Shown one piece after another: positions 8,768 to 14,806 of a stretch of 32,000 nucleotides of DNA. The notes beneath the pieces were generated by a model, which saw nothing but the letters and a program-made list of their open reading frames with translations, had not been told where the DNA came from and searched no databases. The position numbers were made by a program, and so were the translations under genes. The stretch is from Fibrobacter succinogenes subsp. succinogenes S85. GTDB lineage: Bacteria > Fibrobacterota > Fibrobacteria > Fibrobacterales > Fibrobacteraceae. Position 1 is the stretch's first letter. Each line of letters starts with the position of its first letter. The DNA is taken from contig NC_017448.1 of assembly GCF_000146505.1 (NCBI RefSeq), forward strand, positions 2,490,001 to 2,522,000, given 5' to 3'.

Positions 8768-10999
8768 ATGAGTTTACGGAATATACAAATTGAGTCGGAA
8801 TATAGAAATTTACACGGAAATATAATTCGTGATTTCTACAATCCGCTTTTAAGCGAAGCGATTGCGTATGATCGATCTGTTGGATTTTTTTCATCAACAG
8901 CCTTATCCTGTTTTTCTGTTGGATTGTGCAGTTTTTTGAAGAATGGGGGTAAGATAAGATTAGTAGCTACTCCATATCTCTCAACTGAAGACATTCAGGC
9001 TATGAGAGATGGATATAAAGCTCGAAATGAAATTATTGAAAACGCTTTGGTGAGAAACTTATTTGAACCCGAAAATGGCAAAGAAGTTGAACGCTTAAAT
9101 ATGCTGGCAAATCTTATTGCTGAATGCCGTATGGATATAAAAATTGCGCTTACGAAAGCAGGCATGTATCATGAAAAACTAGGAATAATTGAAGATTCTG
9201 ATGGAAATTATGTAGCATTTTCGGGATCTTCAAATGAATCAGAAAATGCATTTCTAAACAATTATGAATCCACAGATGTATTCTGTTCGTGGAAGGATTT
9301 TGAAAAAGACAGGGCTTTGAAAAAAAAGAATTCCTTTGAAAAAATTTGGAATGGGACTGATGACGCTCTGGAAATTCTTGAGTTCCCGAAATTGAAAGAT
9401 GAAATTATACGACGATACAAAAAAACAGCTCCGAAATTTGATATGGATGAAGACTTTTCATATGAGCCTCCTAAAATAGGTGAAATGAATCTAGGAGAAT
9501 CATCTGCAAAATATTCTCCGTTAGTAAAAAAGAATGTTCCAATGATGCCTAAATGGTTTGAAAAAAACATTTTTGATTACCAAAAAGAGGCGATAGATAA
9601 TTGGGCAAAACAAGGTTTTTGCGGAATTTTTGATATGGCCACTGGTACTGGCAAAACGCTTACTGGTTTAGGGGCTGTAACTAGATGTTTTGAATCGAAT
9701 AAAAAACTTGCAACATTTATTGTTGTGCCGTATCAACATCTTGTAGAACAATGGGTTGAAGATGTTGTTAAATTCAATATTAGGCCAATTATTGCGTATT
9801 CGACATCGTCTCAAATTGATTGGAAAGATAGGTTGAAGAAAGCTGTTCGTGACCAGAAAATTCGTCCGAGTGAAAAAAGTTTTTTTTGTGTGGTTACAAC
9901 TAACGCGACTTTCAAAAGTAATTTTGTTCAAGACCAACTAAAAAATATTAAAGCGGATTGTTTGCTAGTTGTTGATGAAGCACATAATGCTGGAGCAGGG
10001 GGCTTTAAGAAGATACTTGATTCGAAGTTTAACTATAGATTAGCTTTGTCTGCGACAATTGACCGGCATGGCGATGATGAGGGAACTCGGTTTTTGTATG
10101 ATTACTTTGGTTATGTTTGTGTTTCCTATGGTTTGGAAAAAGCTATTGAAGAAAAAAAACTTACTCCATATAAATATTATCCAATTATAATTCATTTGAC
10201 GGATGGTGAATTTTCTGAGTATAAACGGCTGACTAAAGAGATGCTTCAGCATACAAGGGTCTCGAAGAGTGGAAATGTTGAATTAGATTCATATGGTGAA
10301 CTTCTTGCTATAAAACGCTCAAGAATTGTTGCTGGTGCGCAAAATAAATTAGATGCATTTAGAAAATGTATTGAACCATATAAGAAAAAAACAAACATCT
10401 TGGTGTATTGTGGGGCTACAACAGTTGTTTACGATTCCGATTCTAGTGGCGGAGAATATGACTTTGATAAGTCCGAAGTTGGAGAAAGACAAATTATAGC
10501 TGTGACCAAAATATTGGGAAATGAAATGGGAATGTCGGTATCTCGGTTTACATCGGAAGAAGATATTGCATCTCGTAGAGTTATAACTGAAAATTTTAAG
10601 AACGAAAATTTGCAGGCTATAGTAGCAATAAAATGTTTGGATGAAGGCGTGAATATCCCTTCAATTAAAACAGCTTTCATTTTAGCTAGTACAACGAATC
10701 CAAAGGAGTATATTCAACGCAGAGGCCGTGTTTTGAGAACGTGGCCCGGAAAAGAATATGCAGAAATATATGATTTTGTGACTCTGCCACAAAATATTGA
10801 TGCGGTGCGGTATTTAACTGATGAAGAAAAAGCTAGTGGTAGAGCTCTTGTAAAAAATGAATTGCTGCGGTTGAAAGAGTTTTCTGGTATTGCGTTGAAT
10901 CGAATTGACAGCCTGTGTCTAATTGATGAAATTCAACAAGTGTACCAAATAACTGACAAGGATTTAAACGACAAAAAAATGGAGGATTTCTATGAGTAA
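8768..10999 (+). CDS. PLD-like (single HKD) nuclease domain fused to an SF2 (ResIII/DEAH) helicase
   Basis: N-terminal YDRSVGFFSS plus HEKLGIIEDSDGNYVAFSGSSNES (an HxK...GSxN motif). Helicase motif I is DMATGTGKTLTG, motif II VVDEAHNAG, motif III LALSAT and motif VI QRRGRVLR. It starts 11 nt downstream of sspA on the same strand. Confidence 0.85.
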   Translation: MSLRNIQIESEYRNLHGNIIRDFYNPLLSEAIAYDRSVGFFSSTALSCFSVGLCSFLKNGGKIRLVATPYLSTEDIQAMRDGYKARNEIIENALVRNLFEPENGKEVERLNMLANLIAECRMDIKIALTKAGMYHEKLGIIEDSDGNYVAFSGSSNESENAFLNNYESTDVFCSWKDFEKDRALKKKNSFEKIWNGTDDALEILEFPKLKDEIIRRYKKTAPKFDMDEDFSYEPPKIGEMNLGESSAKYSPLVKKNVPMMPKWFEKNIFDYQKEAIDNWAKQGFCGIFDMATGTGKTLTGLGAVTRCFESNKKLATFIVVPYQHLVEQWVEDVVKFNIRPIIAYSTSSQIDWKDRLKKAVRDQKIRPSEKSFFCVVTTNATFKSNFVQDQLKNIKADCLLVVDEAHNAGAGGFKKILDSKFNYRLALSATIDRHGDDEGTRFLYDYFGYVCVSYGLEKAIEEKKLTPYKYYPIIIHLTDGEFSEYKRLTKEMLQHTRVSKSGNVELDSYGELLAIKRSRIVAGAQNKLDAFRKCIEPYKKKTNILVYCGATTVVYDSDSSGGEYDFDKSEVGERQIIAVTKILGNEMGMSVSRFTSEEDIASRRVITENFKNENLQAIVAIKCLDEGVNIPSIKTAFILASTTNPKEYIQRRGRVLRTWPGKEYAEIYDFVTLPQNIDAVRYLTDEEKASGRALVKNELLRLKEFSGIALNRIDSLCLIDEIQQVYQITDKDLNDKKMEDFYE

Positions 11000-11159
11000 A
11001 GAAATCGAAATTGATAAAGTAAAGGCTGACATTTTGATGAAAAAGATAGTCGCACTCGAAAAAATCAATTTAAAAACTCAACAAAAAAGTGATCCGCAAA
11101 TGATTCTTGATATTCAAAAAGAAATTGAGGAGGTTGTACAATGTTACTCGAATCCATAA
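10992..11159 (+). CDS. 55-aa charged helical micro-protein (hand-translated, below the ORF-track length cut-off)
   Basis: The ATG at 10992 overlaps the helicase stop (10997-10999). The TAA at 11157-11159 overlaps the ATPase start (11141) by 19 nt. My translation is MSKEIEIDKVKADILMKKIVALEKINLKTQQKSDPQMILDIQKEIEEVVQCYSNP. It exactly fills an otherwise 141-nt gap in a gap-free operon. Confidence 0.5.
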   Translation: MSKEIEIDKVKADILMKKIVALEKINLKTQQKSDPQMILDIQKEIEEVVQCYSNP

Positions 11160-13148: not shown

Positions 13149-13676
13149 ATGTTCGATAAGGAAGTTCGCTTAACGGGTAAGCATGCTCGTTATATGATTT
13201 TGTTGGCAAATAATTTGGGTGAAACAAATGCTAAATTATTTAATCGTAACATTGATGTTTATGTTCAGGCTCCTATTGTTGGCTTTTTATATAAGAGAAA
13301 AGGATCTAAAGATAATGATATGAAAGATCCTAATGGAAAAGTTTATGATGCTCATATTTTGAAGGATCAGATGCTTAATGCAAAAGACAATCTTGTTTTC
13401 AATATGCAGTTGATATTGCTTTTGGATTCTGAATATGAACAGAATGAGGAAAATCGCATTGATCATGCGTTTCGTAATTTTGGAAAAAATGATGGTGATT
13501 TTGAACTTTTTGAATCTTATTTATTAGGTGGAATTGAAGTTTTGTACGAACATTTAATTGCGGATGCCGCAAAAACTGATGATTTTATTGAAAATTTATC
13601 GAGTTTTGTCGACGACATAAATGAACGCTATAATCAAAATGTTAATAAAGAAAAACTCCTCGATTCTTTGAACTAA
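13149..13676 (+). CDS. Hypothetical 175-aa protein. From memory only, it may resemble small dnd-system-associated proteins.
   Basis: GGGAG at 13137-13141 lies 7 nt before the ATG at 13149; the ATG at 13143 is also in frame. I recognise no catalytic motif. The C-terminal ESYLLGGIEVLYEHL pattern is reminiscent of small proteins found next to dnd clusters, but this is an unverified recollection. Confidence 0.55.
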   Translation: MFDKEVRLTGKHARYMILLANNLGETNAKLFNRNIDVYVQAPIVGFLYKRKGSKDNDMKDPNGKVYDAHILKDQMLNAKDNLVFNMQLILLLDSEYEQNEENRIDHAFRNFGKNDGDFELFESYLLGGIEVLYEHLIADAAKTDDFIENLSSFVDDINERYNQNVNKEKLLDSLN

Positions 13677-14806
13677 TGGCTTGTACTGGGATCGAAAAAG
13701 CTTTTGAATTCTTATTAAAAAAATCTAATTCGCAAGGGTATGTGTCTCTTGACGATATACTTTCTTGTGGGGATTTGTTTAATCTTGAGATAGATGATAT
13801 TGAAAGACTTACGGATGTAGTACTAGAAAATAACATCATAATCAATAATCATTCAAAGGTGGAAATCCTAGCTGAGAATGATGTCAATTATAAGGATTTT
13901 TCCTGCATTTTTGATGCGGTTATAGCAGCCGAACCTTTGTTAGAAAACTTCATAGAGTATGTTAGGAAAATTCAACCAGCAGATAAAAAAGAAATGGTTC
14001 GCATTCAATATCAGCTCTTTGAAGGACATGAATACGCTCGAAAACGTGCTATAGAGGGAAATCTACGTATTGCAGTAATTTTAGCATATAGGGAATCTGT
14101 TGCATATAATAAGAATATTGTCGATTGCATTGGTGAAGCTTGTTTAGCATTGGTTTCTGCTTGTAATTCGTATAAGCCGGATGAACATCAAACTTTTGCG
14201 AGTTACATAAGTATTGCTGTATTTGATTATTTGGCTAGAACAATTGGTGTTCCTTTTTTTTCAATTCCGGTGAATATAGTTAACCTTTGTCGAAAATTGT
14301 ATAAGGATATTAAATATAATAGACTGGGAAAAAAAGATGCATTGCTGTATGTCTGTTCTTGTTATGGATTAGAAGAATATTGGTCAAATGTGCTGTACGA
14401 TATTCTTCATGTATTTTTTCTAGATGAAGACGTTTTGGATAATGTTCTTGATAATGTGTATTCAGAAAGTTGTTATGAAAATTTTCTGACGGATGTTGAA
14501 AATGATATAGAGCGAAAGAATGTTCAGATCCTAATCAATCGATGTCTTAATGAATGTTTGACGGATCGGGAATATAATGTTGTTGAACATCGTTATGGCT
14601 TGAATGGTAAAGATTCGCATTCATTAGTTGAATTGGGTTCTCATCAGGTGGTATCGAGAGAACGCATTCGGCAAATTGAAAAAAAAGCTTTGACTAAATT
14701 AGAAAGACGGAAAGAATGGTTCAGAGAAAAAATGGCTTTTGAGTTTAAGGATATTTATCATAGAAACGCTAATGTGGACAAAGATGATGCTGATGATTTG
14801 CATTAG
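13676..14806 (+). CDS. Divergent RpoD-like sigma-70 family protein (regions 1.1, 2, 3.0 and 4.2 recognisable)
   Basis: - Region 1.1-like: GYVSLDDILSCGD...IDDIERLTDVVLENNIII.
- Region 2.1/2.2-like: GNLRIAVILAYRE...DCIGEACLALVSA.
- Region 3.0-like: ARTIGVPFFSIPVNIVNLCRKL.
- Region 4.2: LTDREYNVVEHRYGLNG...LVELGSHQVVSRERIRQIEKKALTKL.
- The start overlaps the upstream stop as TAATG. Confidence 0.8.
   Translation: MACTGIEKAFEFLLKKSNSQGYVSLDDILSCGDLFNLEIDDIERLTDVVLENNIIINNHSKVEILAENDVNYKDFSCIFDAVIAAEPLLENFIEYVRKIQPADKKEMVRIQYQLFEGHEYARKRAIEGNLRIAVILAYRESVAYNKNIVDCIGEACLALVSACNSYKPDEHQTFASYISIAVFDYLARTIGVPFFSIPVNIVNLCRKLYKDIKYNRLGKKDALLYVCSCYGLEEYWSNVLYDILHVFFLDEDVLDNVLDNVYSESCYENFLTDVENDIERKNVQILINRCLNECLTDREYNVVEHRYGLNGKDSHSLVELGSHQVVSRERIRQIEKKALTKLERRKEWFREKMAFEFKDIYHRNANVDKDDADDLH

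Follow-up and report, generated by a model that had tools for sequence, protein, structure and literature searches.

A PbeABCD module with a sigma-70 family partner adjoining Ssp phosphorothioation genes in Fibrobacter succinogenes S85

Recognised effectors of defence based on DNA phosphorothioation (PT) are DndFGH, SspE, SspFGH and, for the Dnd systems, PbeABCD, and the first three are missing at most sspBCD loci (PMC8092258); according to Wang 2021, SspE or SspFGH is found beside only ~15% of 2,678 sspBCD loci (PMC8092258). PbeABCD was first defined by Xiong 2019 beside dndCDEA in a haloarchaeon, where dndCDEA-pbeABCD protects against the virus SNJ1, pbeB, pbeC and pbeD are indispensable, and no degradation of DNA was seen (PMC6459918). 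The system has been re-described by Rakesh, Aravind and Krishnan (2024) as anchored by a CxC ABC ATPase and DndE, in which PbeA is an HKD-SF2 protein predicted to perform the cleavage, PbeB a small protein, PbeC the CxC ABC ATPase and PbeD a DndE cognate, and in which the Dnd partner is not treated as obligatory (PMC10853773). Here we analyse a stretch of 32,000 nucleotides of the Fibrobacter succinogenes subsp. succinogenes S85 genome (NC_017448.1, positions 2,490,001 to 2,522,000), further referred to as the window, where a PbeABCD module directly follows modification genes of the Ssp type and is itself followed by a gene of the sigma-70 family. We demonstrate the identities of these genes, a frameshift in pbeC, and a conserved, co-varying order of nine genes.

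We suggest, at a probability of roughly 0.78, that positions 1323-14806 constitute one horizontally acquired PT-based defence cassette of nine genes, sspDBCA, pbeABCD and the sigma gene. Ten tightly packed open reading frames (ORFs) on the plus strand span this region, with all junctions at most 12 nt or overlapping. The gap between sspA (end 8756) and pbeA (start 8768) is 11 nt; pbeA (end 10999) overlaps a 55-aa ORF (start 10992) by 8 nt, which in turn (end 11159) overlaps pbeC (start 11141) by 19 nt; the second ATPase ORF (end 13136) is followed by pbeD (start 13143) after 6 nt, and the pbeD stop and the sigma start share one nucleotide at 13676 (TAATG). The G+C content of the island is 32-40%, and that of the flanks 45-54%. 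An earlier sequence-only reading had described the part from 8768 onwards as an unassigned module of six ORFs welded to the ssp genes; the positions, strand and spacings which it gave are right, apart from the start of the second ATPase ORF, for which it evidently used a later ATG and which may lie at 12339, giving a 32-nt overlap with the first. The module has five genes and not six, the two ATPase ORFs being one gene broken by a frameshift, and the label of unassigned cannot be kept, since four of the five genes are PbeABCD, with PbeA and PbeC matching their PADLOC models over the full length.

Like the DndCDEA-PbeABCD system of Haloterrigena jeotgali / Natrinema A29 (PMC6459918), the module of the window has the same four genes in the same order, with a PbeC of ~650 aa, and directly adjoins PT-modification genes. 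Unlike in that system, the partner is of the Ssp type (SspB, SspC and a BrxP-like SspD) and not DndCDE, a sigma-70 family gene is present as a conserved fifth member, PbeA is only ~33% identical to its haloarchaeal relatives, and pbeC is frameshifted. PbeA, PbeC and PbeD can be placed in PbeABCD by their matches, and the PbeB-position protein tentatively by its position, its size (the class of ~50-70 aa) and its overlaps, while in the place of dndCDEA the neighbour is SspD/B/C/A. The PbeABCD studied so far is linked to Dnd and lacks a sigma, so that the match to a known PT module covers only half of the picture, and in the searchable literature neither the coupling of Ssp with Pbe nor a sigma partner was found described; an earlier mention is possible in Krishnan et al. 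2020 (NAR 48:10045), where CxC systems were first described.

The linkage was followed with a PbeA alignment scanned against one genome per species, which gave 80 loci, and the counts are limited to those with enough flank, 63 upstream and 68 downstream. SspD-B-C-A lies colinear upstream of PbeABCD in 59 of the 63, and the other four have Ssp-like genes arranged differently nearby; a sigma-family ORF directly follows pbeD in 60 of the 68. Both the welding to the modification genes, with its tiny gaps, and the membership of the sigma gene, as claimed before, are therefore borne out, and the gene set co-occurs with ssp genes across species-representative genomes. The carriers include Fibrobacter, Treponema, many Lachnospiraceae, Ruminococcaceae and Oscillospiraceae (Clostridia), Negativicutes, Prevotella, Bacteroides and Lutibacter (Bacteroidota), Thermoguttaceae (Planctomycetota), Victivallaceae, Caldisericota, Bacillus and Saccharibacillus, as well as two alphaproteobacterial metagenome-assembled genomes (MAGs) and a contig binned as Methanobrevibacter; the nearest loci are those of Fibrobacter MAGs. 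All sigma homologues that were looked up, even those 31-32% identical, are found in the order SspB-SspC-SspA-PbeA-PbeB-PbeC-PbeD-sigma, and the genes downstream of the cassette differ between loci and are unrelated. Pairwise identities across 51 loci correlate (Spearman) with rho of 0.81 for PbeA and sigma, 0.62 for PbeA and SspC and 0.51 for SspC and sigma, at median identities of 60% for PbeA, 46% for SspC and 33% for sigma, which characterises the sigma as a fast-evolving, co-inherited member of the Pbe half.

Some single loci deserve a mention. After the pbeD region, two sigma-less loci carry a GmrSD_N/DUF262 (SspE-like) protein of 757-776 aa (L061, 15633-17963; L070, 14915-17188), and a third locus has both a sigma and a GmrSD_N gene (L005, 11872-13446), which suggests interchangeable or stacked effectors on one Ssp module; Ruminococcus albus 8 (L065) is also without sigma. 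In Faecalibacterium prausnitzii ATCC 27768 a sigma-like ORF (L038, 1933-2535, ending ...VTRERIRQIEAKALRKL) is located upstream of sspD and not after pbeD, so that the sigma gene is kept with the cassette even when its place changes. The contig binned as Methanobrevibacter sp. (L089, JAFRFD010000059.1) is filled nearly over its whole 21 kb by a complete cassette with a bacterial-type sigma, for which reason the archaeal binning is not verifiable; if true, it would argue against a sigma role that depends on RNA polymerase (RNAP). In one Fibrobacter relative (L001) an Abi_2 gene and an AEP-TOTE/DEAD helicase gene (12806-13675, 20456-21125) are found no more than 10 kb from the cassette, a neighbourhood that resembles a defence island and has no counterpart in the window.

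The modification genes open the cassette, all on the plus strand. An SspD-type PAPS-reductase sulfurtransferase with a C-terminal 4Fe-4S motif (1323-3062; Pfam PAPS_reduct, E 6e-32, and Fer4_7) is nearer in PADLOC to BrxP of BREX type 4 (E 2e-81) than to the Vibrio-type SspD (E 2e-12), which makes the modification module one of an intermediate Ssp/BREX-4 type with DUF4007 unfused. It is followed by SspB (DUF4007), the DNA-recognition/nicking component (3063-3971; PADLOC SspB E 1e-52, Pfam DUF4007 E 2e-76, full length), by SspC, a BrxC/ORC-Cdc6-type ATPase (3922-7602; PADLOC SspC E 1e-135), whose true start is probably near 3975, as in relatives, where SspC has 1202-1237 aa, and by the cysteine desulfurase SspA (7584-8756; PADLOC SspA E 3e-44, Aminotran_5 E 1e-73, TIGR01977 427 bits at a cut-off of 377), which probably starts near 7602, overlapping the sspC stop as in relatives. 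DndC models gave weak matches only, and the DndD/DndE pair is absent beside the Pbe module. The modification arm is intact.

A Cro/C1-type helix-turn-helix (HTH) gene (Pfam HTH_26, E 1e-18) ends just upstream of sspD in ~27 of 53 related cassettes, for example at L042:2352-2576, L013:2280-2567 and L017:2234-2530, and is likely a regulator of the cassette; the window and its Fibrobacter clade are without it. Inside the cassette a terminator scan revealed a few weak hairpins (8241, 13171, 13917), none of them convincing, promoter-like sites showed no enrichment (41 against 49.7 in shuffles), and no tRNA genes occur in the window.

The absence of a DNA methyltransferase and of an SspE-type DUF262/DUF1524 protein, noted already from the letters of the sequence, agrees with our scan of window ORFs of at least 90 aa, which returned no methyltransferase and no DUF262/GmrSD domain. 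In a PADLOC scan of all ten cassette proteins PbeA, PbeC and SspA-D found their families, and the SspE, SspF/G/H and DndF/G/H families gave no match, so that the Pbe-sigma module is the sole candidate for the restriction or effector arm.

PbeA (8768-10999, 743 aa) combines a single-HKD nuclease of the PLD family with an SF2 DEAH helicase/translocase and matches the PADLOC PbeA model with E 3.8e-235, residues 3-713 being aligned to positions 1-679 of 682; Pfam recognises PLDc_2, ResIII/DEAD and Helicase_C. The domains guessed from the sequence alone, HKD nuclease with DEAH helicase here, and an ATPase with CxC and a sigma factor further on, are borne out. The HKD motif (H135-x-K137...D143...GSSN) lies in HEKLGIIED (9170-9196) and GSSN (9224-9235), followed by the Walker A GTGKT (9644-9658), DEAH (9974-9985) and QRRGR (10715-10729), and the residues of the HKD, GTGKT, DEAH and QRRGR motifs are invariant in the alignment of relatives. 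Identity to PbeA-type proteins of haloarchaea, the group in which PbeABCD was characterised, is 32-34% over 96% of the length. The next ORF, the 55-aa protein in the PbeB position (10992-11159), is tentatively assigned by its place, size, conservation and overlaps with pbeA and pbeC: all relatives examined have a gene of 54-57 aa in this slot, and 22 columns are invariant between sequences that are 45-95% identical. PADLOC has a catch-all model, "PT_other", which detects the remaining genes when gene prediction misses short Dnd/Pbe genes. Both small ORFs are real genes, with position, length and sequence kept in relatives down to 41-50% identity.

The second of them, PbeD (13143-13676, 177 aa), is a cognate of the "DNA phosphorothioation-associated protein 4", described as DndE-like, and was assigned by a profile-profile match: its family alignment compared with PbeD/"associated protein 4" of other Pbe loci in hhalign gives a probability of 87.6%, E 3.5e-6, over 135 columns, and both alignments have in common the motif F-[ED]-x-Y-x-x-GG-[IL]. 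In relatives, which are 41-93% identical, the protein starts at MFDK, two codons further in.

PbeC (11141-13136) is a CxC Zn-hook ABC ATPase, and not the SMC/DndD-type ATPase with a CxC hinge that had been read there (PMC10853773). Its first part (11141-12370, 409 aa), with an AAA_23/SMC_N head, holds Walker A (11243-11266) and the CLC hook (C346-L-C348, 12176-12184), the second (12339-13136, 265 aa) the LSEGQ signature (12819-12833) and Walker B (12936-12953), and the two cover positions 1-392 and 391-640 of the PADLOC PbeC model PDLC02741 (644 positions). What had been taken for a split arrangement is really an insertion of one base in an A6 homopolymer (12344-12349), a +1 frameshift seen in comparison with intact relatives: removal of one A gives a pbeC ORF of 664 aa with no internal stop, pbeC of relatives is a single gene of 663-666 aa, and the repaired protein has a single full-length match in 84 of 88 loci, with the CxCG motif invariant in the 88. 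A near-identical locus (L090), whose sigma is 99% identical to that of the window, has A5 in this place as the sole difference over ~110 nt and encodes an intact PbeC of 664 aa, and an alignment with three intact relatives (L010, L001 and L003) likewise shows no extra base. Programmed frameshifting we rejected, as the near-identical strain is in frame and the change is a plain A5/A6 indel with no slippery-heptamer register. An assembly of the run SRR29904083 encodes the same split into 409 and 265 aa, by which the indel is probably real, though the run could be the source of the window itself. Taking into account that pbeC was indispensable in the one experimental study (PMC6459918), the effector arm in this copy is most likely inactive and the cassette copy probably disabled.

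The last gene (13676-14806) encodes a SigA-like protein of the sigma-70 family, 376 aa long, with regions 1.1, 1.2, 2, a weak region 3 and region 4. The assignment follows from region 4, which exceeds its threshold (Sigma70_r4 38 bits, cut-off 24.1; TIGR02937 54.6 bits, cut-off 42.9), and from the fold, since the AF2 model (pLDDT 74.5) has SigA and sigma-S as best PDB matches in Foldseek (probability 1.0, 275-380 columns); in NCBIfam the scores are far below all RpoD/RpoS equivalog cut-offs. Comparison of 56 family members with SigA of C. difficile shows that the family keeps regions 1.2 and 2.1, the core-binding pattern D-x-I-Q...G-L..A..K-Y-D of region 2.2, equivalents of F, Y430, W434, Q437 and R441, the PVH of region 3.0 and an almost canonical region 4.2 (TLEEVG..VTRERIRQIE.KAL.KLR; RERIRQIE at 14657-14680 in the window). 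A SigA-type region 1.1 is kept as well, and conservation of region 3 is poor. By protein search we recovered a dedicated family of 13 clusters at 57% identity or above and four more at 31-32%, with a score gap between its distant members (133-150 bits) and ordinary sigmas (at most 83 bits), and judging by these relationships we regard it as a separate cassette-bound lineage. To phage or plasmid proteins there are only weak matches to generic sigmas, at 25-27% identity, and such an origin was rejected. In two loci the sigma has an extra C-terminal domain, DUF4357 (E 1e-10) in L007:10001-11584 and a weak Z-alpha-like match (E 0.006) in L089:14906-16513.

PbeA relatives on plasmids, 30-36% identical, present other contexts. 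On an Aurantiacibacter plasmid (NZ_CP015441, L096) the order methyltransferase-PbeA-PbeB-PbeC-PbeD is followed by a 437-aa protein (12612-13925) with an RNAP alpha-CTD-like domain and sigma region 4; on a Ruegeria plasmid (NZ_CP045388, L091) dndC-D-E and a desulfurase gene precede a gene for a 1026-aa protein (5921-9001) that has these two domains as well, and the stop of this gene overlaps the start of pbeA. In GenBank, the partners on these two alphaproteobacterial plasmids are labelled "sigma factor-like helix-turn-helix DNA-binding protein". Ssp and Pbe are combined in other orders in Rhizobium indigoferae and on a Sphingomonadaceae plasmid, Lactiplantibacillus (L. plantarum) and Leuconostoc plasmids carry PbeABCD alone, and in Halococcus methylases are near the Pbe module. 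From the varied gene orders it follows that the Ssp-Pbe pairing arose in several arrangements, and a protein with sigma region 4 is a frequent, not universal, Pbe partner, whatever the modification type.

From the literature cited and our analysis the following course of events would be logical to suggest. SspD (BrxP-like), SspB, SspC and SspA would put the PT mark on host DNA; PbeC, the CxC ABC ATPase, together with PbeD as its DndE-like DNA-binding partner would scan DNA and read its status; PbeA, an SF2 translocase with one HKD nuclease domain and presumably dimeric, would be the motor and effector; and the 55-aa PbeB would be a small regulatory or adaptor subunit. The sigma would still bind core RNAP and act on how the cassette is transcribed, providing for its expression or keeping it up, possibly while a phage takes over the host sigma. 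We infer in this way the dependence of this Pbe module on PT and all the molecular roles, that of the sigma included.

A number of observations speak against the reading as one PT-based nine-gene cassette. PbeA reaches 490 bits with TIGR04095 dnd_restrict_1 ("DNA phosphorothioation system restriction enzyme"), whose cut-off is 600; for the PbeB-position protein hhalign detects no similarity to small proteins from six other Pbe loci (probability 1%), which fits the description of PbeB as a rapidly evolving small protein (PMC10853773); PbeD gave noise only in Pfam (E up to 1) and in a profile search of PDB sequences and no match in NCBIfam and PADLOC, and its DndE-like fold is predicted from the description; sigma is missing in 8 of the 68 loci and is not annotated with the Ssp-Pbe combinations of Rhizobium indigoferae and the Sphingomonadaceae plasmid. 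The function of an Ssp-linked Pbe is a prediction from the Dnd-linked haloarchaeal system, sigma-free and with a ~33% identical PbeA, from which all functional data come, and Rakesh 2024 makes the case that CxC/Pbe systems frequently function on their own, with no dependence on PT modules (PMC10853773). That these genes form a new restriction system unrelated to the known PT effectors, as the sequence-only reading had it, would agree with the missing SspE, SspFGH and DndFGH matches and with the small proteins lacking family matches; it is hardly tenable in view of the full-length PADLOC matches of PbeA and PbeC, which refute it, the profile match of PbeD and a gene order identical to that of PbeABCD (PMC6459918, PMC10853773). 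We consider it unlikely that PbeABCD-sigma is a self-contained CxC-type defence merely situated beside Ssp genes and discriminating its target independently of the PT mark. CxC/Pbe systems without any PT module are known and their role as restriction partners has been questioned (PMC10853773), the L. plantarum and Leuconostoc plasmids have PbeABCD alone, and the lower correlation of PbeA with SspC than with sigma suggests some exchange of modules; yet SspDBCA stands immediately upstream on the same strand in 59 of 63 loci of the PbeA clade, here with the 11-nt junction, and Ssp-like genes are near the other four, the pairing recurs in other gene orders in Alphaproteobacteria, all other Pbe contexts seen, except the lactobacillus plasmids, adjoin dnd genes or a methylase, and PT on viral DNA affected the outcome in the characterised system (PMC6459918). 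As for the broken pbeC, the frameshift could be a homopolymer sequencing error, leaving the cassette fully functional, or the halves might reassemble, given the overlap of the second ORF with the first. One A too many in a run of A, which is how the window differs from near-identical L090, is the commonest type of sequencing error, and all other cassette genes are intact; the identical 409-aa and 265-aa products in the SRR29904083 assembly, possibly of the same sample, and the shortness of A5/A6 for a systematic homopolymer error in Illumina data count against an error, which makes it rather unlikely.

For the sigma we tentatively favour action through RNA polymerase, at somewhat less than even odds, because most of the family members keep the core-binding and promoter-contact residues and region 1.1. 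Several facts tell against it: in the window clade the sigma is degenerate in region 2.3/2.4 (W433/W434 changed to I/A, Q437 to D and H455 to N), Pfam does not detect region 2 in the window protein, though it does so in relatives and the region can be aligned one motif after another, and the 300 nt upstream of sspD in 53 loci contain no shared or sigma-specific promoter, the best TTGACA-N16-18-TATAAT scoring 9.28 against 8.99 in shuffles (the k-mers enriched there are the 3' end of the Cro/C1 HTH gene and not a promoter). The sigma-like partners in Aurantiacibacter and Ruegeria are without any region 2, which favours a DNA-binding role over an RNAP-binding one. The sigma might instead belong to the Pbe complex, as a subunit or sensor whose sigma-4 HTH and regions 1.1/2 target that complex to DNA, or be a SigA look-alike bound by phage anti-sigma or host-takeover proteins and so triggering PbeA. 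This agrees with the loss of key promoter-melting residues in the window clade, the missing dedicated promoter motif and the region 4 plus alphaCTD-like partners of other Pbe clades, and further with the overlap of the sigma start with the pbeD stop, a divergence that tracks PbeA more tightly than SspC does, an overall fast evolution (median identity of 33% against 60%) at a region 4.2 near-identical to that of the housekeeping sigma, and the extra domains of DNA-binding type in some members (DUF4357, weak Z-alpha). We hold it somewhat doubtful, as region 2.2 with its core-binding pattern, the Y430/W434/Q437 equivalents and region 1.1 are kept in most members and a mere DNA-binding subunit would not need such features of regions 2.2 and 1.1, there is no interaction evidence of any kind, and haloarchaeal PbeABCD works with no such protein (PMC6459918). 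The bolder form of this idea makes the SigA-derived sigma an integral part of a DNA-restriction machine, either a decoy for phage anti-sigma or takeover proteins that switches on PbeA or a subunit by which the PbeC/PbeD scanner is led to the DNA of promoters or open complexes; we consider it unlikely. If it were true, SspABCD-PbeABCD-sigma would be a distinct and widespread type of PT defence of gut and rumen anaerobes, accounting for a part of the ~85% of sspBCD loci with no known restriction partner.

Other described systems share parts of the cassette. SspABCD-SspE (Xiong 2020) and SspABCD-SspFGH (Wang 2021, PMC8092258) have a modification module of the same type and the same logic of a PT mark with an adjacent effector, but the effector of the window is unrelated to theirs, with no DUF262/DUF1524 protein and no SspF/G/H match; in a few related loci a GmrSD_N (SspE-like) gene accompanies the sigma or replaces it. 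With BREX type 4 (BrxP-BrxC-PglZ-BrxL; Yuan 2026, PMC12914056; PMC12839542) the cassette shares a PAPS reductase best matching BrxP and an SspC that also matches BrxC, and both systems make, or are predicted to make, PT; unlike BREX type 4, the window has no PglZ and no BrxL/Lon-like protein, its effector is PbeABCD, and its DUF4007 is a separate gene, not fused to the reductase. MzaA of the MZA system (NF041931; PDLC02203) is also a sigma-70 family protein in a defence operon, and its sigma part aligns to ours (PADLOC E 3e-10). MzaA is ~700 aa long with a large N-terminal part, which the window sigma lacks, and no Mza partner genes (MzaB-E) are present; with 57.9 bits against the NF041931 cut-off of 800, and the sigma part alone aligned, membership was rejected. 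To SigA/RpoD and the group-2 sigmas the window protein is colinear in regions 1.1-1.2-2-3-4, with a nearly canonical region 4.2, but its clade has no equivalents of the W-dyad and Q437.

The window and at least 59 species-level relatives show that in Clostridia and other anaerobes Ssp modification is regularly joined, within one operon, by a Pbe module, and the nine-gene package is found in many gut and rumen bacteria. Among the carriers in culture are Faecalibacterium prausnitzii ATCC 27768, Ruminococcus albus 8, Clostridium ragsdalei P11 and Pseudobacteroides cellulosolvens DSM 2933; pbeC is intact, for example, in the last two, in Eubacterium pyruvativorans i6 and in Butyrivibrio sp. NC3005. 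With Pbe-sigma, a part of the sspBCD loci that remain after SspE and SspFGH has a further partner, and the module is nearly always accompanied by a sigma-70 family protein of its own. Since a protein with sigma region 4 recurs next to Pbe modules linked to a methylase or to Dnd genes, such a protein is probably a fifth component, so far neglected, of this class of systems. A partner derived from the transcription apparatus offers a concrete lead to the mechanism of Pbe. For the genome studied here, with its effector arm probably broken, PT modification should persist.

Outside the cassette, a transposase of the PD-(D/E)XK nuclease family (17-796; PDDEXK_2, E 6e-32) lies ~500 nt upstream of the low-GC region. 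Downstream of the cassette are DtxR-FeoA-FeoB genes; repeated TTAGCCTTG-CTAAT-like palindromic units at 15110-15190, a short way before the DtxR-family repressor gene (15218-15652) and feoAB, resemble operator sites of the iron-box kind. Further on, the minus strand encodes a Fic/DOC domain protein with a C-terminal winged HTH (24401-25519; Pfam Fic E 1e-20, HTH_24), possibly a toxin or a regulator, which has no relation to the cassette.

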